A DNA stretch of 64,000 nucleotides, taken from assembly GCA_016186325.1 (NCBI GenBank), contig JACPLW010000001.1, positions 187 to 64,186 of the forward strand, read 5' to 3'. The notes beneath the pieces were generated by a model that ran no database searches, was not told the DNA's origin, and saw only the letters and a program-made list of their open reading frames with translations. Numbering within the stretch: the first letter of the stretch is position 1; each line of letters begins with the position of its first letter. Below, in pieces: positions 4,175 through 60,808 of this stretch. Source of the DNA: Parcubacteria group bacterium. Its GTDB lineage: Bacteria; Patescibacteriota; Minisyncoccia; UBA10092. The position numbers and the translations under genes were made by a program.

Positions 4175-5134
4175 TTATTCTAACATTTTTTTGAAAAATC
4201 TGTCCTTGATTAAATGAACTTTTTCGAAGTAATGAATTTCACAATCAAGACATGGGGTTCCATCTCCTCGGTCTTTAAGATGCGGGAATACTCTCACCAT
4301 GGCTTCTGTAGCTCGGTCTTTGCTTTTTGATGAGTAGAAAGTATTAATATCCCATCGTGCGTTCTGACAAGTGTACTTCAGATTTGCGAACATTGTTAGA
4401 GCTCGGCTTACGTATTCTTTAGCCGCCCAAAGATTAAGACGATCGTTTTCATCACGAAGTTGTTTTTCGGCATCAATACAGAGACTTGGATAACAGAATG
4501 CCAGAGGAGAAACAAGATGGAGTGCGGTTAGATTTAATCCACCAGCCACTCCGAGACCTAAACGAAACTTCTCTGCCGCAAGTGCGTCAAGATAATCTTT
4601 AGCTATATTTGTATCGAGCGCTTTTCCTAATCCACTGCTTTGGTCAAGAAGAATATAGTCAACTAGGTCATGGTACTCTTCAAGTTTTTTTGCTAACGCG
4701 TCGGGATAATATCCTATTTGTTCAAAAGCGTTATGCCCAACTTGTAAAACTATCTTCATATCCCAATGGCGTCTTCGATAATTTTCAAGCGCATGTATAT
4801 CGGGCCATGCAATGTTGAGCTGGAATCCGTGTAAGTTCGGGCCCGAAATATCCGTTGCCTCTACCATTTGGTCGTACAGCGTAGAAAGCTCTCTGGTATT
4901 ATAATGCATCAAATTAAGCGCCCGTGGATGGTCGGTAAATATTTCTGCAATATCTTTTGCCGTTGGATAGAGATTTGGTCTGCTATTCTGTCCGCCTCTT
5001 ATTGTATTTTGACTTGCAAGTACGCCAATCATCAATTTGTGTTTTGAACCATATGGCATTATTGCCAAAACGGCATCACTTTCTTTCTTAGTCATGAATC
5101 CCGTAACTCCAATATACGGCGTCCATTTTGACAT
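4175..5134 (-). CDS. hypothetical TIM-barrel-like protein with TrpF (phosphoribosylanthranilate isomerase)-like motifs
   Basis: 319 aa. LHGFQLN, ILLDQSSGLGKALD and VAGGLNLTAL resemble the TrpF QLHG / LLD..GGxG / SGGLN motifs. Function uncertain. Confidence 0.3.
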   Translation of the reverse strand: MSKWTPYIGVTGFMTKKESDAVLAIMPYGSKHKLMIGVLASQNTIRGGQNSRPNLYPTAKDIAEIFTDHPRALNLMHYNTRELSTLYDQMVEATDISGPNLHGFQLNIAWPDIHALENYRRRHWDMKIVLQVGHNAFEQIGYYPDALAKKLEEYHDLVDYILLDQSSGLGKALDTNIAKDYLDALAAEKFRLGLGVAGGLNLTALHLVSPLAFCYPSLCIDAEKQLRDENDRLNLWAAKEYVSRALTMFANLKYTCQNARWDINTFYSSKSKDRATEAMVRVFPHLKDRGDGTPCLDCEIHYFEKVHLIKDRFFKKMLE

Positions 5135-5693: not shown

Positions 5694-7334
5694 ATGTCAA
5701 AACAAATAATTTCAGGCGTTGCCGCTAGAGAAGCGATAAAAAGAGGCGTTGACCAGTTGGCCAATGCCGTAAAAATCACCCTTGGCCCACGCGGGCGCAA
5801 TGTTATTTTGGATAAAGGTTATGGCGCGCCGGTCATTACCAACGACGGCGTTACTATTGCCAAAGATATAGAACTAAAAGACAAGTTTGAGAACATAGGC
5901 GCCCAACTGGTAAAAGAAGCGGCGTCAAAAACCAACGACATTGCCGGCGATGGCACTACAACGGCCGTAGTTTTGGCGCAGGCGATGATCGCCGAAGGCA
6001 TAAATCTTATAAATTCCGGCGCTAATGGCATGGTTTTAAAACGAGGTATGGATAGGGCGACAACTAAGGTTTCAGAAATTTTAAAAAAGAATGCCAAACC
6101 GGTAACAAAAGAGAAAATTAAAGATGTTGCCGTGATTTCTGCCAATGACGCGGAAATGGGCTCTCTTATCGCTGAAGTGATAAACAAAGTCGGCAAAGAA
6201 GGCGTGGTTACCGTTGAGGAAGCTCAAACGCTTGGAGTTGATTACGAGCTCGTTGAAGGACTTCAATTTGACCGCGGCTATGTTTCAGCCTATATGGTGA
6301 CCGATACTGAAAGAATGGAAGCGGTTATGGAAAAACCGCATATTTTAATAACTGACAAGAAAATTTCTTCTCTGACAGAAATAATGCCGCTTTTGGAAAA
6401 AGTTGTTAAATCTGGAAGCAAAAATTTGGTAATTATTGCCGATGAAGTTGAAGGCGAGGCGCTCGCTACTCTTGTTGTAAACAAATTGCGCGGCGTTTTC
6501 AACGTTCTCGCGGTCAAGGCGCCGGGATTTGGCGACAGGCGGAAAGAGCTTTTGGAAGACATCGCCGTAGTTGTTAACGGTGAGGTAATTTCAGAAGATA
6601 AAGGCATGAAGCTTGAAAGTGTTGATTTAAACATGCTTGGAGAAGCCAAAAAAATTATTGCCAACAAAGACAACACAACGATTGTCGGCGGTTCCGGCGG
6701 AAAAGGGGAAATTGAAAAGAAAATAAAACAAATAAAAGTCCAGCTTGAAAAAACCGAATCAGAATTTGACCGCGAAAAATTACAAGAACGGCTGGCAAAA
6801 CTTTCCGGCGGGGTGGCGGTGATTAAAGTAGGCGCCGCGACCGAAACAGAAATGAAAGAAAAGAAATTCCGCATAGAAGACGCCGTGGCAGCCACTAAAG
6901 CCGCGATTGAAGAAGGCATTGTTTCCGGCGGCGGAGTGGCTTTATTTGAGGCTGCAAGAGAACTAAAAAACCTTAAAACTTTGGCGGGTATTTCTGAATT
7001 CGGCGATGAAGCTAAGGGCGTTAATTTGGTAGTTAACGCGCTTGAGTCGCCGATGAGGGTTATCGCGCGTAATGCCAATAAAGATGAAAATGAAGTAATT
7101 CAAACTATCAGTTCCGTGGAAAAAGGAACGGGTTTTAATGCCGTTACCGGCGAATATGCCGATCTTATTAAAGATGGCGTAATTGATCCTCTCAAAGTGA
7201 CGCGCACGGCTTTGCAAAACGCCGTTTCTGTTGCTTCCATGCTTTTAACAAGTGAATTTTTAGTGGCTGATCTACCGGAAAAAAATAACCCACCAGCCGG
7301 CGGGATGCCCGGTATGGGCGATATGGGGATGTAA
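5694..7334 (+). CDS. groEL: chaperonin GroEL
   Basis: Unmistakable GroEL with [28 protein letters not shown] and a C-terminal GGM repeat. Start is the ATG at 5694. Confidence 0.9.
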
Positions 7335-45661: not shown

Positions 45662-45682
45662 TTAAGGACGTCGGACGTCCTT
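45662..45682. repeat. 21-bp perfect palindrome TAAGGACGTC-G-GACGTCCTTA (copy 1 of 3)
   Basis: Identical copies with a variable centre base at 57273-57293 and 58992-59012. Contains GACGTC. Confidence 0.8.
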
Positions 45683-53342: not shown

Positions 53343-54089
53343 ATGAATCCGACTAAAATATCCATTATTATAGCGATTTATAATAGCCATGGAGCTGTGG
53401 CCAGGCAAGTGAAGCATTTCAAGGCGATGAATTTGCCGGATGATATTGAGTTTATTTTTATGGACGATGGCAGCAACCCGCCGCATAAAATTGAGGATTA
53501 CGAACTTTCGAACCTGCGCATTCATTACACTAACGATAAGCGTCCTTGGACCCAAGGTCTGGCCCGCAATGCCGGCGCCAAATTAGCGAAGGGAGAGTAT
53601 CTTTTTTTTACAGATATTGACCACATAATTTCAAAAGAAGCTATTGAAGCGGTTTATGAATTTACGGGCGATAAAATGGTTTTTCCGCGCCACTTCGGAG
53701 TTTTACTGGAAGACGGCGTTCTTTCCCAAGAGCCATCAGTTTTAGAAGAGTATGGCATGGATATGGGAAGGCTGAAAACTGAAAGGGGCTTATACGCCAG
53801 CGTTCACGGGAATACTTATGCTATAAAAAAGACGACATTCGAAAGGATTGGGGGCTATTCGGCCAGATACTGCACTTACGGCCACCACGCTCCTTCAAGA
53901 GGAGGAGAAGACGGTCATTTTAATCATTTGTGGAATCGTTATGCCAAAGCTAACGGTATACAATCAATTTGGGGCCCCAAGATATATATTTTCCCAATCG
54001 GCCAATATCATGTGCGAGGTGATTTAAATCCCAAAGGTTTATTTCATAATTTAAGCCATGATCAGGCCCCGCAGCCTCTAAAAGAATGA
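53343..54089 (+). CDS. GT2-family glycosyltransferase
   Basis: ISIIIAIYNS...IFMDDGSNPP. Confidence 0.5.
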   Translation: MNPTKISIIIAIYNSHGAVARQVKHFKAMNLPDDIEFIFMDDGSNPPHKIEDYELSNLRIHYTNDKRPWTQGLARNAGAKLAKGEYLFFTDIDHIISKEAIEAVYEFTGDKMVFPRHFGVLLEDGVLSQEPSVLEEYGMDMGRLKTERGLYASVHGNTYAIKKTTFERIGGYSARYCTYGHHAPSRGGEDGHFNHLWNRYAKANGIQSIWGPKIYIFPIGQYHVRGDLNPKGLFHNLSHDQAPQPLKE

Positions 54090-54101
54090 AAATCGTAATT
54101 T

Positions 54102-55769
54102 ATGAAATACAACCTAAGCATTCTTATCCCCGCTCGCAACGAAGAATTCCTCAAAAAAACAATTGAGGATATTTTGAGCAACATTGAAGGAAATACGGAA
54201 ATTATCGCCGTCTTAGACGGCTATGAGACAGAACTGCCGGACGATCCAAGATTGAAAGTAATATGCAATCCGGAAAGCAAGGGCCAACGGGCCGCTACCA
54301 ACCAGGCCTGCCGGCTTTCGGAAGCAAAATATATAATGAAATGCGACGCTCATTGCGCTTTTGACAAAGGATTTGACGTCAAGATGACAGCCGAAATGAA
54401 AGATAACTGGACGATGATTCCGGTTATGAGGAATCTCCATGCTTTTAATTGGGTTTGTCCGGACGGGCATAGCAGATACCAAAGTCCTTCCGGCCCGTGC
54501 AAAGAGTGCGGCAAGCCCACAATCAAGGATGTGGTCTGGATAGCGAAAACAAACCCGCAAAGCACCGCTTATTGTTTTGATCAGGAACCGCATTTCCAAT
54601 ATTTCAGAGGATTCAAAAAGCGTCCCGAATATAAAAAAGATTTAGAAATAAATTTAACGGAAACAATGTCTATTCAGGGCTCTTGTTTCATGCTTACTCG
54701 CGACAAATACTGGGAACTAAATATTTGTGACGAATCTTTCGGCTCATGGGGTTCGCAGGGGATTGAAGTGGCATGTAAAACATGGCTTTCAGGAGGCAGG
54801 GTAGTGGTTAATCACAAAACATGGTATGCCCACATGTTCAGGACGCAGGGCGGCGATTTTGGTTTTCCTTATGAGAACCCGGGCAGTAAAGTCCAGCAGG
54901 CGAAGAAAACGGTAAGAGAAATATTTTTTGATAATAAATGGGACAAGCAAATCCGCCCGTTGTCATGGCTTATAGAAAAATTTTGGCCGGTGCCGGGCTG
55001 GACGGAAGAGATGAGAGCAAAAATCAAGGCCTGGCCGCTTCAGAATCAAAATCGTGGAATCAATGTTTCCACGATTTCGCCGGTCGCGCCGACTAAGGGC
55101 ATATTGTATTATTCGGACAACCGGCTAAATATCAAATTTGCCAAAACTATCAAGAAACAGATCGCAAAATCGGGGCTCAATATCACGTCAGTTACATTGA
55201 AGCCTACTAACTTCGGCACCAATTTTGTAGTAAGCGGGGAAAAGGGATATAAAACAATGTATAAGCAGATTCTCAAAGGTTTGGAAGAGATAAAGGAAGA
55301 CATCGTTTTTCTATGCGAGCATGATGTTCTGTACCACCCGAATCATTTCCTCTTTACCCCAACCGACAAAAACACTTTTTACTATAACGGCAACTATTGG
55401 TTTTTAAGACAGAAAGATGGCTTCGCGGTTCATTATAATGCCTCGCCTTTATCGGGGCTGGTGGTTTATCGGGAGGCGGCCATAAAACATTTCAGGGAGC
55501 GGGTAGAAATGATAGAAAAACTTGGCAACGATTATAGGCCTCGCCACATGGGTTTTGAGCCGTTTACGCACGGCAGGATTAGATGGAATTTTTGGTGTAA
55601 TTTTGAAAACTTTATGCCGGCGTTTCCTAATATAGATGTTTCTCACGGAGAAAATTCCACTTGGAAGCGCTGGAATCAAAAAGATTTCAGGCGCAAGCCG
55701 ACATTCTGGGAGGAGGGAAATATAGATACTATCCCCGGTTGGGATAATGTCAGAAAGTTGTTGGGGTAA
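54102..55769 (+). CDS. GT-A-fold glycosyltransferase-like protein, paralog family A (copy 4, with ~250-aa C-terminal extension)
   Basis: LSILIPARNEEFLKKT...AVLDGY. The last ~105 bp are duplicated at 57148-57262. Confidence 0.5.
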   Translation: MKYNLSILIPARNEEFLKKTIEDILSNIEGNTEIIAVLDGYETELPDDPRLKVICNPESKGQRAATNQACRLSEAKYIMKCDAHCAFDKGFDVKMTAEMKDNWTMIPVMRNLHAFNWVCPDGHSRYQSPSGPCKECGKPTIKDVVWIAKTNPQSTAYCFDQEPHFQYFRGFKKRPEYKKDLEINLTETMSIQGSCFMLTRDKYWELNICDESFGSWGSQGIEVACKTWLSGGRVVVNHKTWYAHMFRTQGGDFGFPYENPGSKVQQAKKTVREIFFDNKWDKQIRPLSWLIEKFWPVPGWTEEMRAKIKAWPLQNQNRGINVSTISPVAPTKGILYYSDNRLNIKFAKTIKKQIAKSGLNITSVTLKPTNFGTNFVVSGEKGYKTMYKQILKGLEEIKEDIVFLCEHDVLYHPNHFLFTPTDKNTFYYNGNYWFLRQKDGFAVHYNASPLSGLVVYREAAIKHFRERVEMIEKLGNDYRPRHMGFEPFTHGRIRWNFWCNFENFMPAFPNIDVSHGENSTWKRWNQKDFRRKPTFWEEGNIDTIPGWDNVRKLLG

Positions 55770-55845
55770 GTAAATACTCCTTATCCACAGCTAAAACTTG
55801 TGTTTTTTCGAAATACCGATTACAATTGAACTGGAGGTAACACCC

Positions 55846-56451
55846 ATGGTAGCTTCCAGTCCACATATGCAAAAATCAGAAATATTGAATATTTTAAGGG
55901 CGAACAACACAGTCTTCACATTCAAGGAGATTCTTTTGGCATCCGAAGGAACAAACACCTTGTTATTAAAAAGAAGGTTGAATTATTATGTCAAAAAAGG
56001 TGAATTATACTCAATCCGGAGAGGATTTTATGCCAAGGACAAAAACTACGATAAGCTTGAATTAGCGACTAAGATTTACACCCCTTCCTATATAAGTTTT
56101 GAGACGGTTTTAAGACAGGCCGGTATGATATTTCAGTATTATGAGAGAATTTTTATTGCCTCATACATTACCCGAGAAATTACTGCCGATAATCAGACCT
56201 ATGAATATAGGAGAGTAAAAGATACTATTTTGACCAATTCTGTTGGCATAGAAAAGAAAGAATATTACTCCATTGCTTCTCCCGAGCGCGCATTTCTTGA
56301 TGTGTTGTATGTTAGTAAGGATTATTATTTTGATAATTTGCGTTCTTTAAATTGGGATAAAGTGTTTGAACTGCTTCCTATTTACGCAAATAAACGAATG
56401 GAAAAAGTTGTAAATAAAATATTCAATGGCGCTCAACATCGCAATTCATAA
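55846..56451 (+). CDS. type IV toxin-antitoxin system AbiEi-family antitoxin
   Basis: ~200 aa with a wHTH N-terminus. RBS GGAGGT lies 8 nt upstream of the ATG at 55846, and the 3' end overlaps the downstream toxin gene. Confidence 0.5.
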   Translation: MVASSPHMQKSEILNILRANNTVFTFKEILLASEGTNTLLLKRRLNYYVKKGELYSIRRGFYAKDKNYDKLELATKIYTPSYISFETVLRQAGMIFQYYERIFIASYITREITADNQTYEYRRVKDTILTNSVGIEKKEYYSIASPERAFLDVLYVSKDYYFDNLRSLNWDKVFELLPIYANKRMEKVVNKIFNGAQHRNS

Positions 56452-57142
56452 GAATATCATGATTAAGATATTGAAAGATATTTACTCCGATGCTACTATC
56501 GGTCCCATTTTAGCTTTCAAGGGTGGGACGGCGGCATATTTATTTTACGAATTAGATCGTTTTTCGGTGGACTTGGATTTTGACCTCTTGGATGCTGAAA
56601 AAGAAGATTATGTCTTTGAAAGAGTCAGAAATATTTTAGAGAAATATGGCACATTGAAAGAGGCCAGCAAGAAAAGATTTAATCTGTTTTACTTGCTCTC
56701 ATATTCTGAAAAAATTAAAGGTGGACAGAATATTAAGCTTGAAATAAATCGGAGGGATTTTAATTCTAAATATGAAGTAAGGTCGTATCTAGGTATTCCC
56801 ATGAAAATAATGGTGCGAGAAGATATGGCGGCTCACAAGATAGTCGCGATGTTTGAGAGATTTGGCACTACGAATCGCGACATCTTTGATGTTTGGTTTT
56901 TCTTGCAGAATGACTGGCCGGTCAACAAAGAGATTATAGAAAAACGAACCGGCATGTTGTTCAGGGAACTTTTAGAAAAATGTATTGAACTGCTTGAAAA
57001 GATGGACAACGGCAGCATATTATCTGGTATGGGAGAGCTTTTGACTCCAAAACAAAAAGATTGGGCCAGGGCAAAGCTTCGAACTGACACTATCTTTCTT
57101 TTAAAATTAAGATTAGAAAACGAAAAATCAATGAAATTCTAG
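56426..57142 (+). CDS. AbiEii/AbiGii-family nucleotidyltransferase toxin (DUF1814)
   Basis: FKGGTAAYLFY...RFSVDLDFD matches the AbiEii GGTA...R.S.DLDF nucleotidyltransferase motif. Confidence 0.55.
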   Translation: MALNIAIHKNIMIKILKDIYSDATIGPILAFKGGTAAYLFYELDRFSVDLDFDLLDAEKEDYVFERVRNILEKYGTLKEASKKRFNLFYLLSYSEKIKGGQNIKLEINRRDFNSKYEVRSYLGIPMKIMVREDMAAHKIVAMFERFGTTNRDIFDVWFFLQNDWPVNKEIIEKRTGMLFRELLEKCIELLEKMDNGSILSGMGELLTPKQKDWARAKLRTDTIFLLKLRLENEKSMKF

Positions 57143-57147
57143 TCGGA

Positions 57148-57262
57148 GAAGCGCTGGAATCAAAAAGATTTCAGGCGCAAGCCGACATTCTGGGAAGAAG
57201 GAAATATAAACACCATTCCCGGTTGGGATAATGCGAGGAAGCTGTTATCAAGAAGCCAATAA
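57148..57262 (+). pseudogene. orphan duplicate of the 3' end of the 54102..55769 gene
   Basis: ~85-90% nucleotide identity to 55664-55769. Translates as EKRWNQKDFRRKPTFWEEGNINTIPGWDNARKLL. Confidence 0.6.
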
Positions 57263-57272
57263 AATTAAAAAT

Positions 57273-57293
57273 TAAGGACGTCCGACGTCCTTA
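57273..57293. repeat. 21-bp palindrome TAAGGACGTC-C-GACGTCCTTA (copy 2), preceded by AAATTAAAAAT
   Basis: Seen in sequence. Confidence 0.8.
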
Positions 57294-57347
57294 ATATTGG
57301 CCTACTTAAATTGTTTATTATTAACATGTAACATAATGGTAAAAAAC

Positions 57348-58409
57348 ATGCAGAAAAGTAAAAAAATAAAAATCAAATTATTCCAGCCGTATGTTTCTCC
57401 GCTGGCCAGAAAAATGGTCCAAAAAGTTTTATCGGGAATCTGGATAGCCGAGGGCCCGATGGTAAAAGAATTTGAAAAAGAATTTGCCAAAAAATTCAAT
57501 CTGAAAAACGTTGCGGCAGTTAACTCCGGCACCAGCGCCTTAGAGCTGGCTTACGAACTCGCGGATATCAAATCGGGCGATGAGGTAATCACACCGGTTT
57601 TAACTTGCGTGATTACCAATGTTCCTTTGGTAAGGCGGGGAGCGAAAATAATTTTTGCCGATATAGATTACGATTTGAATATGAGTATTGAAGATGTCAA
57701 GAAAAAAATAACCCCAAGAACCAAGGCGATAGTTTTTATGCATTTCGGAGGAAATAACCGCGGGCTGAAAGAATTGATTAAAATATGCAAAGAACGGAAG
57801 ATTTGCCTCATTGAAGACGCCGCCCAAGCGGTCGGTTCCGATTTTTGGGGGAAGGCTGATTTTACCGCCGTCTCGCTTCAAGCGATTAAAATGATAACTT
57901 CCGGGGACGGAGGATTTTTGATATGTAAAAATAAAAAAGATTGCGACAAGGCCAAGCGGCTGCGCTGGTTCGGATATGACAGGGACAAAAGAGCAAAACT
58001 GGGAGATATTGATTTAAAAGAAGCCGGATACAAATATCAAATGTGCGATGTCGCGGCTTCTATAGGTTTGGGCAATTTGTTGTCTATTGATCCTGTTCTA
58101 GCCCATGGAAAACGCCTACAAAAAATTTATAAAAAATACGGACTGAAACCCCATGCCTGGGTATCGGTGGGTTTCACTGATAATTATAAAAAATTAAAAG
58201 AACTTTACGGCCGGGAGGGGATAGAAATAGGAAAAAATCATTTTCGTAACGATAAATACACTTTGTTCAAAAAATTTAGAACCCCTTTACCAATAATGAA
58301 CGAATTAGAGCATAGGTATTTTATTGTGCCAAGCCACTATGCGGTACCGGAAAAAATTGCCCATAAAATCGGCCGGATTTTTGTGAACAGTAAATTAAAT
58401 TTAAAATGA
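57348..58409 (+). CDS. DegT/DnrJ/EryC1/StrS-family PLP-dependent sugar aminotransferase
   Basis: EGPMVKEFEKEFAKKFN...AAVNSGTSALELA...PVLTCV. The internal ATG at 57348 is preferred. Confidence 0.65.
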   Translation: MQKSKKIKIKLFQPYVSPLARKMVQKVLSGIWIAEGPMVKEFEKEFAKKFNLKNVAAVNSGTSALELAYELADIKSGDEVITPVLTCVITNVPLVRRGAKIIFADIDYDLNMSIEDVKKKITPRTKAIVFMHFGGNNRGLKELIKICKERKICLIEDAAQAVGSDFWGKADFTAVSLQAIKMITSGDGGFLICKNKKDCDKAKRLRWFGYDRDKRAKLGDIDLKEAGYKYQMCDVAASIGLGNLLSIDPVLAHGKRLQKIYKKYGLKPHAWVSVGFTDNYKKLKELYGREGIEIGKNHFRNDKYTLFKKFRTPLPIMNELEHRYFIVPSHYAVPEKIAHKIGRIFVNSKLNLK

Positions 58410-58410
58410 A

Positions 58411-58800
58411 ATGACTGATTTAAATAATGAAAATCCGCCATGGTATTCCTCGTATGAGAAAAATAATTACGGAGATTTGTTTTACGCGCTGATGCGCATT
58501 TATAAACCCAAGAAAGTTGTTGAATTGGGTACTAAAGCTGGATACAGCGCTTACCATATAGCAAGGGGGCTTAAGGATAATAGAAGAGGCACTCTGGACT
58601 GTTATGACTTGTGGGAGAGGTATGAATTTAAATCGGTACCTAAATCGGTTGCCGAGAAAAATTTAAAAAAATTTAAAGATATCATAAAACTTAAACAGCG
58701 CGACGCGATTGGAGTAAATAAGTTATATAAAAAAATTGATATTTTACATGTTGATGTCAGTAATGAGGGCGGAATTTTAGAAAAAATAATACCGAACTAG
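58411..58800 (+). CDS. small class I methyltransferase-like protein
   Basis: VVELGTKAGYSAYHIARGL. Confidence 0.35.
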   Translation: MTDLNNENPPWYSSYEKNNYGDLFYALMRIYKPKKVVELGTKAGYSAYHIARGLKDNRRGTLDCYDLWERYEFKSVPKSVAEKNLKKFKDIIKLKQRDAIGVNKLYKKIDILHVDVSNEGGILEKIIPN

Positions 58801-58991
58801 ATAGATAAGACACGCCAGCTTATAATTATTGAAGGCGGCTCACTAGAACGCGACAAGGTTGAGTGGATGATAAAATATAAAAAGATACCGATAAGAAAAT
58901 GGCTTAAAAATTTCGCTGACAAGAATGGAGATATTGAATATTTGATGATAGAACCGTTTCCTTCCATAACTATTATCTGCAAATTAAAAAT

Positions 58992-59012
58992 TAAGGACGT
59001 CTGACGTCCTTA
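58992..59012. repeat. 21-bp palindrome TAAGGACGTC-T-GACGTCCTTA (copy 3), preceded by AAATTAAAAAT
   Basis: Seen in sequence. Confidence 0.8.
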
Positions 59013-59016
59013 GATT

Positions 59017-60141
59017 ATGAATAAAATTATTACAAATCAAGAAAAGAACGCCCCGATTTCTAACGGGGTGAAATTAAATTTAGGTTGCGGTAAAGAGCAT
59101 AAAGAGGGATATATCAATATTGATATTCAAGAACCTTGCGATTTGAGGCATGATTTAAGAACCCCTTGGCCGTTTGACGACGGTTCGGTTGATGAAATAT
59201 TCACCGAAGATACTGTCCGCATTTTTTCGCTCAAAGAATGGGAGAAGGTTAAAAAAGAGATGGCCAGGGTTTTAAAACCCGGCGGCAAGCTGGAGATTAT
59301 CTTCCCGGACTTTGAATACATACTTAATGCTTTTTTAAAAAATGAAGACGGAAGAAGATGGAGTTGGTGGTGGCGGGTAATCTTTGGCTCTCAAGAGAAC
59401 GACGAATACCGTGATATTTGCAAAAACAGTTTTACTTATAAAAAATTATTGGCCGAGTTATTTAAGAAAGGGATGATAAACTTTAAAAAACAGCGATTAG
59501 AAGAACAACCGGGCTATATCCATTTAACTTGTCATAAACAGCCAGTTGACTATAAGATGCCGCATTCCCTAAGAGTTTTAATCGGAGTGCCAATTCATAT
59601 AAATTATCCTATAGAAAAATGCTTGGGATATATCTCTAAATTGAAATACCGGGCAGACCTTTTAATGGTAGATACTTCCTCTGGCCTTGGCTATCTGGAG
59701 AAAGTGAATGGGTACTGCGCTAAATACGGGATAAAGAATTATAAGATAGAACATTTGGAAATTAATCAAGAACAAGGAGAGGATGAAAGAATCGGCCGCT
59801 CAAGGGAGATAATCCGGCAATATGTTCTTTCCCATAATTACGACGCATGGTTTTCCGTTGAATATGACAACATCCTGCCGGCTAATGCCTTGGACAAACT
59901 GGTCGGGTTGATGGAAGAAGGCAATTTTATGATGGTATTCGTCCCCGCATTGGCAAATAAAATTCTTTGTGAACCCACTACTAATTTTGGTTGCGCTTTA
60001 ATCAGGCGGGAATGCTTTGAAAAGCATGGTTTTTTGTCTGAATATGATGCGATCAAATGTTGGCATGGAGTGGAGGTTTTTTTCAAAAAACGTTTCATTA
60101 AAAGCAGAAACTATTCCGACGATATTTACGAAATGGTTTAA
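59017..60141 (+). CDS. two-domain protein: SAM methyltransferase (LNLGCG motif) fused to paralog family C domain
   Basis: The first 17 codons (MNKIITNQEKNAPISNG) derive from a degenerate copy of the IR element. The true start is probably the GTG at 59068, giving (M)KLNLGCG. Confidence 0.45.
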   Translation: MNKIITNQEKNAPISNGVKLNLGCGKEHKEGYINIDIQEPCDLRHDLRTPWPFDDGSVDEIFTEDTVRIFSLKEWEKVKKEMARVLKPGGKLEIIFPDFEYILNAFLKNEDGRRWSWWWRVIFGSQENDEYRDICKNSFTYKKLLAELFKKGMINFKKQRLEEQPGYIHLTCHKQPVDYKMPHSLRVLIGVPIHINYPIEKCLGYISKLKYRADLLMVDTSSGLGYLEKVNGYCAKYGIKNYKIEHLEINQEQGEDERIGRSREIIRQYVLSHNYDAWFSVEYDNILPANALDKLVGLMEEGNFMMVFVPALANKILCEPTTNFGCALIRRECFEKHGFLSEYDAIKCWHGVEVFFKKRFIKSRNYSDDIYEMV

Positions 60142-60187: not shown

Positions 60188-60808
60188 ATGAAAATCCTTA
60201 TCGGCACGCCAATCCATATTTGTAAGGACTATTGCATGGAGCGATGGCTCCAAAACGTAGTCGAACTCCGTCTAAAATATCCGGCCGATTTGCTTTTGGT
60301 TGATAATTCCCCAGGGCTTGAATATGTGGAGAAAATGAAGGGGTACTGTGCGAAATATGGAATAAAAAATTATAAGATTGAACACATAGAACTTCCCCAG
60401 GAAAAGGTTTATCACGAAAAAATAGCCCGCTCAAGGGAGATAATCAGACAAGAAATGCTTGCCCATGATTATGATGCTTGGTTTACATGGGAATCCGACC
60501 AGCTCATACCAACCAATACTTTGGGCGAACTGGTTAGGATAATGAAGGGTGGAAATTTTATGATGATTAATCCCAATAACTGGGCAAGGGGGGTTCCCGA
60601 TCAGCCCAATACCGACCACGGCCTTTCTTTAATTAAAAGAGAAGTTCTGGAAAAGCATGGTTTCCTGCTTGAGTTTGGCACCGATCCTGAGATGCCAAAA
60701 AACTGGGACGAAAGCGATGCTTGGTTTAAGAAACGCGTTCTAAGGGATGGAGGCAATTTTATTGAACTTTATGGCGTTATTGAACCAGTTTATCACTTAA
60801 ACGAATAA
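60188..60808 (+). CDS. paralog family C protein (small GT-A-like, uncharacterised), copy 2
   Basis: MKILIGTPIHICKDYCMERW...LLLVDNSPGLEYVEKMKGYCAKYGIKNYKIEH. Confidence 0.4.
   Translation: MKILIGTPIHICKDYCMERWLQNVVELRLKYPADLLLVDNSPGLEYVEKMKGYCAKYGIKNYKIEHIELPQEKVYHEKIARSREIIRQEMLAHDYDAWFTWESDQLIPTNTLGELVRIMKGGNFMMINPNNWARGVPDQPNTDHGLSLIKREVLEKHGFLLEFGTDPEMPKNWDESDAWFKKRVLRDGGNFIELYGVIEPVYHLNE

Follow-up and report, generated by a model that had tools for sequence, protein, structure and literature searches.

An AbiE toxin-antitoxin cassette between two alleles of a glycosyltransferase gene end in a Parcubacteria group bacterium

We analysed a window of 64,000 nt from a Parcubacteria group bacterium (GenBank assembly GCA_016186325.1, contig JACPLW010000001.1, positions 187 to 64,186 of the forward strand); coordinates without a further label refer to this window, and related sequences are labelled L001 and onwards. 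At 55770-57147 (1.38 kb) the window contains a two-gene AbiE toxin-antitoxin module, located at the 3' end of a two-domain glycosyltransferase (GT) gene of family GT2, and the last 33 codons of the GT gene are present a second time directly behind the module. The surrounding cluster consists of GT2, methyltransferase and aminotransferase genes that all run in the same direction, and the module is its sole insert unrelated to glycosylation, in line with the original prediction, made from the same DNA, of a cassette inserted in a glycosyltransferase island. We propose, with a probability of about 0.6, that it is a recombinase-less selfish or defence cassette that spread by homology-anchored host recombination. 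The locus comprises the following features:

54102-55769, plus strand: two-domain GT2 glycosyltransferase gene, 555 aa (Pfam PF00535, E = 1.6e-13)
55664-55762, plus strand: upstream copy of the 99-nt direct repeat, forming the functional gene tail; the coding sequence continues to the stop codon at 55767-55769
55770-55780, plus strand: left junction spacer GTAAATACTCC, with ACTCC directly before the box
55781-55789, plus strand: TTATCCACA box, which resembles a DnaA box; conserved in the cassette family upstream of the promoter
55798-55826, plus strand: probable cassette promoter as read from the sequence (TTGTGT, 17-nt spacer, TACAAT)
55827-55863, plus strand: imperfect palindrome, candidate AbiEi operator (TGAACTGGA..TCCAGTCCA; extended ACTGGAGGTAAC / GTAGCTTCCAGT)
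55846-56451, plus strand: abiEi, antitoxin and autorepressor by family; likelier start at ATG 55867 (194 aa)
56426-57142, plus strand: abiEii, DUF1814 nucleotidyltransferase toxin, 238 aa (Pfam and PADLOC)
57128-57147, plus strand: cassette right end ATGAAATTCTAGTCGGA, which resembles ATGAAATTCTGGCCAGTG
57148-57262, plus strand: downstream repeat copy, an orphan gene tail (KRWNQ..NARKLLSRSQ, then stop) without a gene body, in frame behind the TAG stop of abiEii
57268-57298, no strand: palindrome AAAATTAAGGACGTC-C-GACGTCCTTAATATT, marking where the GT gene originally ended

The two cassette genes lie on the same strand and overlap by 26 nt, as predicted. AbiEii was recognised by Pfam (PF08843, E = 9.6e-20) and by PADLOC (PDLC02324, E = 8.9e-78), matched the PDB relatives 4o8s and 4ok0 (E of about 1e-9), and its translation retains all four motifs intact (KGG33-34; R45FSVD49LD51; K138IVAMFER145; R151DIFD155). 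Its predicted identity therefore stands. The family motifs I/II (hG[GS]..RxxxDhD), III (KLxAaxxR) and IV (+DxxD) are required for toxicity (Dy et al., PMC3985639). The AbiEi assignment, to a winged-helix antitoxin, holds as well, although the proposed check with hidden Markov models gave a divided result: PADLOC supported the assignment (PDLC02255, E = 1.1e-62, residues 13-194 of 201), while Pfam AbiEi_4 scored 17.1 bits, below its cut-off of 25. No solved-structure relative of AbiEi was detectable by sequence. An identical AbiEii sequence is present in NCBI, where it is named AbiEii/AbiGii toxin of 'Parcubacteria group bacterium'; the module itself is typical of a known family and has already received its name in public data. 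By analogy with the AbiEii of Streptococcus agalactiae and mycobacterial MenT, AbiEii would add nucleotides to tRNA 3' ends and so arrest translation, AbiEi would neutralise the toxin and repress the operon, and the pair could abort phage infection and make the DNA that carries it hard to lose.

The direct repeat on either side of the module comprises 99 nt at 90% identity (55664-55762 and 57148-57246; 1484 nt from start to start) and is by far the longest repeat in the 53.5-59.5 kb region. Up to their respective stop codons the copies extend over 55664-55769 and 57148-57262. The upstream copy completes the GT gene, whose N-terminal domain is GT2 and whose end (..NIDTIPGWDNVRKLLG, then stop) agrees with the family consensus IDTIPGWDNVRKLL across 70 homologues. 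The downstream copy, the orphan (S)EKRWNQKDFRRKPTFWEEGNINTIPGWDNARKLLSRSQ with its own stop, continues the abiEii frame behind the TAG codon; it ends in ..NINTIPGWDNARKLLSRSQ, is followed by the palindrome at 57268-57298, and differs from the consensus at two residues. Both the recurrence of the gene tail behind the cassette and the in-frame orphan behind the toxin stop had been noted in the original prediction, and both were recovered here. The in-frame position is probably a by-product of the junction. Readthrough of the TAG (57140-57262) would extend the toxin by 39 residues.

Differences between the two copies are distributed unevenly. The first 48 nt agree fully, and the remaining 51 nt contain all ten mismatches (hypergeometric P = 8e-4). 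Moreover, eight of the ten mismatches are synonymous and two are non-synonymous, with 18% synonymous expected by chance (P = 3.6e-5). The same pattern was found in L045, the nearest analogue with a complete locus, whose AbiEii is 92% identical: its repeat of 114 nt has five of six mismatches in the last 22 nt, and five of six are synonymous (P = 7e-4). Because decay would give evenly spread, mostly non-synonymous change, the two tail copies are two alleles brought together by recombination and not a recent duplication in decay, and the claim that the duplicated tail is a footprint of recombination is upheld. Both distal halves appear to have evolved as working gene ends in different lineages, with an exchange near position 48.

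An in-situ target-site duplication, in which a staggered cut or a template switch copied the 99 nt and the copies diverged later, is quite unlikely as the source of the present tails. It would have left even, roughly neutral change, in contrast to the 10/10 distal (P = 8e-4) and 8/10 synonymous mismatches of the window and the similar pattern of L045. Variable-length local duplications (25-250 nt) surround the cassettes of relatives, several of them near-perfect (L111) and many with hairpins, and the window tail also holds a hairpin, ACTATCCCCGGTTGGGATAAT; these observations speak for such a process, which may have been the first event in an ancestor.

GT homologues occur in Patescibacteria metagenome-assembled genomes at 50-82% identity, and their N-terminal and C-terminal halves are separate genes in many of them. 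Cassettes were found behind this gene family repeatedly. In L128 (GT 68% identical) a homologous cassette lies directly after the same tail of the C-terminal domain (C tail), with AbiEi 73% and the N-terminus of AbiEii 87% identical. The left junction of L128 has the same order as that of the window, namely the stop codon, ACTCC and the box, and the contig ends inside abiEii. The single-domain GT ends in ..EKFWPV.GW..LKK, then stop (N tail). In L045, L041 and L018 this tail is followed by an AbiE cassette and then by an orphan copy of the tail; the AbiE of L018 is of a distant type (27-29% identical). In L037 both AbiE types are found further along a series, with short orphan tail fragments between them.

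Two of these loci contain several cassettes in a row. The series of L041 (1-6309) runs GT, AbiE, tail, MazF-like, tail, HTH plus Fic, tail, MazF-like, tail, with at least five tail copies, and that of L037 (6585-11610) runs GT, Fic, AbiE type 2, AbiE type 1. Toxin cassettes of the two series thus include AbiE type 1, AbiE type 2, PemK/MazF-like and Fic/DOC. The Fic cassette of L041 lies between the distal (IPGWDNVRKLL) and proximal (WRQDQFRNKPTDWKEAD) parts of a C tail, inside the array of N tails, so that cassettes carry scraps of earlier flanks with them. In L022 the tail and the box are followed by a DUF4143 ATPase. Orphan single-domain tails start at (A)AATTCTGGCC in L018, L037, L041 and L032, beside unrelated partners. 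In the first three of these the start lies 0-3 nt after the cassette stop. In L032 (5390-5520) the tail is fused at TTCTGGCC to a gene-head remnant, which belongs to the MKILIGTPIH family described below.

At four loci with GT homologues (L125-L128) the sequence after the gene includes an orphan N tail, an IS200/IS605 transposase and another AbiE cassette. The transposase gene, of the Y1 type, is found in L126 (6774-7457) directly after a GT homologue (72% identical), behind a G+C-rich hairpin. The 3' flank of the GT gene also receives mobile DNA of other kinds. L125 carries an orphan tail of the single-domain type (WLLEKFWQVSGWTQEDLDNLKR..; 6655-6720), and it lies 35 nt beyond the stop codon of a fused GT gene with 74% identity to that of the window. 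The fusion of N-terminal and C-terminal domains may itself have arisen by insertion of a C-domain gene into an N tail.

The recurrent junction raises the question whether the GT 3' end is a dedicated cassette-capture site in bacteria of the candidate phyla radiation (CPR), in which the coding tail acts as a transferable site for attachment or homology. Two AbiE types, MazF, Fic and the DUF4143 ATPase would then have been inserted successively, each bringing or regenerating a tail. The (A)AATTCTGGCC junction and a TTATCC[AC]CA box at the left ends of cassettes would form the recombination site of an unknown host enzyme, and the whole would function like an integron or tycheposon array without a recognisable recombinase. 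This idea draws mainly on the common start of the orphan N tails at (A)AATTCTGGCC, and we regard it as doubtful.

The right end of the cassette was compared among the same loci. The usual abiEii stop (..NEK, then stop) reads TCA in the window; the toxin extends to ..SMKF, and its open reading frame (ORF) runs into ATGAAATTCTAGTCGGAG. This segment matches ATGAAATTCTGGCCAGTG at 14 of 18 nt, the sequence with which, in L041, the orphan N tail begins behind the abiEii stop. L045 and L132 also carry ATGAAATTC after the abiEii stop. The motif at the right end was either inherited from an earlier site or belongs to the cassette itself, in which case it offers microhomology to the GAAATTCTGG of the GT. 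ATGAAATTCTAG at the toxin end may have been left behind by an earlier insertion, though this is no more than a possibility, because L132 has the motif in a non-GT context. The left edge of the downstream repeat copy, at 57148, coincides with the patch GAAG.G.TGGA, which is common to the N tail and the C tail.

Both junctions of the cassette were found in independent data. The junction from GT to abiEi is reproduced at 100% identity in the Logan contig L002 and that from abiEii to the repeat at 100% identity in the Logan contig L001, each from a separate sequencing run. L001 ends 30 nt inside the repeat, which we read as a k=31 unitig break at the repeat, with the Logan k-mer size assumed. Such a break exactly inside the repeat is also what one would see if a small circular cassette or a second strain had been threaded into the assembly through the shared 48 nt, and k-mers shorter than 48 give the same graph for the integrated form and for a chromosome plus a circle. 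An assembly artefact of this kind is nevertheless extremely improbable: the junctions on both sides of the cassette recur in the two other runs, the same architecture was assembled independently in L045, L041, L018 and L128, and the differing distal halves exclude a simple loop.

We searched for enzymes that could have moved the cassette. Domain scans covered the cassette and 20 flanking ORFs (42.4-62.9 kb), and the ORFs at 1-42 kb in part; ORFs around the cassettes of L041, L037 and L045 were scanned as well. Neither integrase nor transposase domains were detected in the cassette or in the 20 flanking ORFs, which encode glycosyltransferases, methyltransferases, TatC and unknowns, and the ORFs scanned around the other three cassettes contained no recombinase domains. 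Only two ORFs of the cassette reach 100 aa, and no terminal inverted repeats pair its two ends.

Nevertheless, cassettes that are 88-92% identical at the protein level occupy five different contexts. Apart from the window cassette, which lies after the C-terminal tail of a fused GT, and that of L045, after a single-domain GT tail, they are found in L046 (= L129) within a split 19-nt hairpin behind an unrelated gene, in L130 between two paralogues of another glycosylation-island gene (segments about 70% identical), and in L131 after a 680-aa ORF. In L046 (4560-4590 / 5942-5975; the same in L129) a perfect 19-nt inverted repeat, CAAAATGGAAAATGACAGT / ACTGTCATTTTCCATTTTG, flanks a cassette that is 89% identical; we read it as a split hairpin, with the cassette as if inserted in its loop. 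The cassette of L132 is flanked by two copies of another hairpin, CTTGGAAACTCGGTTTCCAAG. Furthermore, at least five distinct AbiE cassettes lie directly upstream of a radC-like gene (MKIKDLP..RPREKL; L049, L084, L092, L119-L121, L123).

Flanking duplications of local sequence were scored in 50 dereplicated relatives with enough flank. In 12 of the 50 the score was at least 46, with a 99th percentile of 27 for shuffled pairs. The duplicated flanks are 25-250 nt long and mutually unrelated, and other relatives are without any. GT tails are among them. In L100 the duplicated flank is the tail of a Fic gene; in L084 it is the first 59 nt of the radC-like gene, copied upstream of the cassette; in L111 it is a whole small gene (253 nt at 99%); and in L047, L080, L102 and L132 it consists of non-coding hairpins. 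Close relatives differ by about 30 nt in where the cassette begins on its left side.

These data bear on two further explanations. Site-specific integration of the e14/icd or tRNA-island type would join a gene end carried on the element (attP) to the chromosomal gene end (attB), with the integrase since deleted or acting in trans. The layout of icd, e14 and icdC is similar, in that the gene is made whole by the copy on its own side, an orphan lies beyond the element and the differences are mostly conservative (PMC13626634); moreover, the orphan-tail series of L041 and L037 resemble tandem arrays at tRNA sites, and orphan tails repeatedly begin at AATTCTGGCC. However, an element of 1.38 kb with two ORFs and no recombinase domain in the scanned ORFs (42.4-62.9 kb; L041, L037, L045) does not fit this scheme well. 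Cassettes at least 88% identical share no common att core, having unrelated duplications of varied length or none, and the left boundary shifts among close relatives. We therefore consider site-specific integration unlikely.

The cassette might also have replaced all but the last 115 nt of a second, tandem GT gene. L004 has a second copy of the C-terminal domain (53% identical) 0.9 kb downstream, the island contains several paralogues, and the L130 cassette lies between paralogous segments. Such a remnant would need 48 nt of perfect identity followed by 80% identity, and the second gene would have to be cut off 5 nt behind the abiEii stop. In addition, the combination of cassette and orphan recurs at other genes (the Fic tail of L100, the radC head of L084) and in other genomes, a recurrence not expected from separate truncations of paralogues. 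A tandem-paralogue origin is for these reasons very unlikely.

Mobile vehicles were sought in sequence collections. The plasmid collection gave a single distant match, at 25% identity. Viral contigs contained two loci at 65% identity, one of them in a true phage context, and no close copy of the cassette. Phage is possible as a vehicle. The phage locus, L134 (= L076; 2796-9437), has an AbiEii homologue that is 65% identical, with an intein-containing 730-aa ORF on one side, a P22-like portal gene on the other and RusA nearby; abiEi was not detected upstream of this homologue.

The regulatory region of the cassette was examined by lining up about 60 relatives. The consensus promoter scan did not call the cassette promoter because its -35 hexamer is weak; relatives carry TATAAT or TTGACA-like hexamers at the same positions. 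A palindrome is kept at the same place in relatives, with arm sequences that differ by sub-lineage and yet co-vary, as would be expected of an AbiEi operator. It lies between the -10 hexamer and the likely start codon and is a candidate for this role. AbiEi of S. agalactiae binds inverted repeats in its promoter, and the two S. agalactiae genes overlap by 4 nt (PMC3985639). The position of the palindrome differs from that of S. agalactiae IR1/IR2. At the position of ATG 55846 the close relatives L046, L129 and L130 have AGG, which makes ATG 55867 the likelier start of abiEi; the gene caller assigned 194 aa to abiEi of L129.

Upstream of the promoter lies the TTATCCACA box. The original prediction had placed this sequence at 55783-55791 and described it as a DnaA-box-like feature of the cassette border; it is actually located at 55781-55789. 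We surveyed 62 dereplicated relatives for TATCCACA on either strand, with positions taken relative to the abiEi start. The box was present in 11 of them at -65 to -79, with 0.008 expected per cassette, and is located about 8 nt upstream of the -35 hexamer in the cassette family. The genomic surroundings of these cassettes are unrelated to one another, and the box can face either way, being inverted in L128 and L132. The unrelated contexts and the fixed position therefore indicate that the TATCCACA box belongs to the promoter or regulatory region of the cassette and is not a chromosomal border or origin feature. As it travels with the cassette, its reading as a DnaA box marking a replication origin or border was rejected.

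In the 64-kb window four copies of the box are present, with 0.49 expected. Two TTATCCACA motifs, together with direct GTGGG/GTGGA repeats (GTGGGAGATTGTGGGTAAGTTTGTGGATAAG), lie at 21060-21155, upstream of mraZ (21212-21643), which is followed by rsmH, a PBP transpeptidase gene and ddl. This run of motifs looks like an MraZ operator, and TTATCCACA in this genome therefore need not mean DnaA.

On the right-hand side the cluster continues with a DegT-type aminotransferase gene. The palindrome that had been proposed as a border feature does mark the 3' boundary of the GT gene; its position is corrected to 57268-57298, with further copies at 45664 and 58993. Its core, AAGGACGTC(C/T/G)GACGTCCTT, occurs three times (45664-45682, 57274-57292, 58993-59011), at gene-block boundaries of the glycosylation cluster; the segments 57262-57293 and 58981-59012 have 32 nt in common at 97%. 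The scan called the cluster palindrome terminator-like on the minus strand only. The genes at 59017-60141 and 60188-60808 stand in tandem and are paralogues from an uncharacterised family of the glycosylation island (MKILIGTPIH.., ..GYCAKYGIKNYKIEH..), members of which also flank the AbiE cassette of L130 (2820-3014 / 4724-4924). The Rfam scan of 54000-59200 gave chance-level matches only.

We explain the locus as follows. The cassette would travel as naked DNA with bits of its former flanks and enter by host recombination, with no enzyme of its own. A donor segment made up of a GT gene end, the cassette and perhaps the start of an orphan tail would recombine with the resident GT gene. On the left it would be anchored by homology in the conserved GT gene; on the right, the exchange would take place inside the first 48 nt of the resident tail, or at the homeologous patch GAAG.G.TGGA at its start. 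The resident tail would thereby be kept as an orphan, still followed by the hairpin of the cluster, and would become a ready-made homology arm for later transfers. Addiction and phage defence would retain the insert. The duplication itself may first have arisen through homology-facilitated illegitimate recombination that brought a donor tail with it, by template switching at hairpins, or through the action of an unknown enzyme. The architecture, the allelic nature of the two tail copies, the lack of a recombinase in the scanned neighbourhood, the occurrence of the cassette at several sites and its flank scraps are observed, whereas the way the DNA moved, the pathway by which it recombined and its entry by uptake are inferred.

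Several points weigh against this explanation. Every sequence compared is a metagenome assembly. No cassette-free allele was found at strain level; the nearest GT homologue is only 76% identical, and because of this distance donor and recipient are deduced rather than observed. Simple strand replacement cannot yield the duplication unless the donor had its own copy of the tail, and 48 nt of exact identity need a crossover there or later gene conversion. The recurrent (A)AATTCTGGCC start of orphan tails is a hint of a preferred site, which would not be expected if the process were purely random. ATGAAATTCTG follows the abiEii stop also in L132, in a non-GT context, and may belong to the cassette end itself instead of stemming from an earlier site. 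Finally, the cassette does not stand out in GC content (35% versus 35-44% in neighbouring genes), so a foreign origin is not decided by this measure.

Toxin-antitoxin modules spread readily, mostly without a mobility gene, and their movement is poorly documented. CPR bacteria, whose genomes are very small, are believed to depend on taking up DNA. The cassette and its relatives offer a readable footprint, in the form of bracketing alleles, flank scraps and near-identical copies at unrelated sites, which points to host recombination anchored in conserved genes. This may be a main route by which defence genes enter the otherwise conserved surface-glycosylation clusters of CPR bacteria. If it were true that the gene tail is a capture site, it would represent a new kind of cassette platform.

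Compared with known systems, the module resembles AbiE of S. agalactiae and Lactococcus and MenAT of Mycobacterium tuberculosis. Like these it is bicistronic with overlapping genes and has the DUF1814 motifs I-IV, an antitoxin that fits AbiEi profiles (its N-terminal part weakly on Pfam AbiEi_4) and a palindrome in the promoter region. It differs from the characterised members in its sequence (about 25-30% identity), its CPR host, a palindrome that is of different sequence and lies downstream of the -10 hexamer, and the extra TATCCACA box. The AbiE family has lately been proposed as type VII rather than type IV (bioRxiv 10.64898/2026.01.19.700257).

The e14 element in icd (PMC13626634) and the islands that target dusA or tRNA genes (PMC4482086) likewise insert in a gene 3' end, keep the gene intact and leave an orphan copy on the far side. 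These islands are 10-100 kb long, with their own integrase and a fixed core, in contrast to the 1.4 kb, the varied flanks and the absence of a detected integrase here. Gene-end duplication footprints are thus already known for integrase-bearing islands. Insertion sequences, transposons and mobile insertion cassettes are characterised by a transposase, terminal inverted repeats and a short duplication of fixed length, unlike the duplication of 99 nt here and of variable length elsewhere. The pdif modules of Acinetobacter plasmids are likewise serial small cassettes between copies of a repeated attachment sequence. Tycheposon arrays (bioRxiv 10.1101/2020.12.28.424599) and the toxin-antitoxin cassettes of chromosomal integrons also carry serial small cargo between repeats, often toxin-antitoxin or defence genes, like L041 and L037. 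The repeats of these three systems are dedicated sites (partial tRNA, attC, pdif) with a known recombinase, whereas those described here are coding gene ends under protein-level constraint. Integron gene cassettes have an attC site at their 3' end, and their arrays lie behind an IntI integrase gene with attI; the flanking ORFs scanned here (42.4-62.9 kb) encode no integrase. Inspected by eye, the inter-cassette repeats are coding gene tails and not imperfect palindromes with RYYYAAC/GTTRRRY ends.

Homology-facilitated illegitimate recombination involves one homologous anchor and one junction of a few bases, and no enzyme of the element. It fits the GT anchor combined with GAAG.G.TGGA at 57148. 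Described cases mostly delete rather than duplicate recipient DNA, and the process is not known from CPR bacteria. In the literature searched there was no description of the combination of features seen here. Set beside the known systems, the less ordinary features of this locus are a recombinase-less 1.4-kb cassette between two alleles, a pattern that is repeated across CPR bacteria, and cassettes strung between orphan tails.

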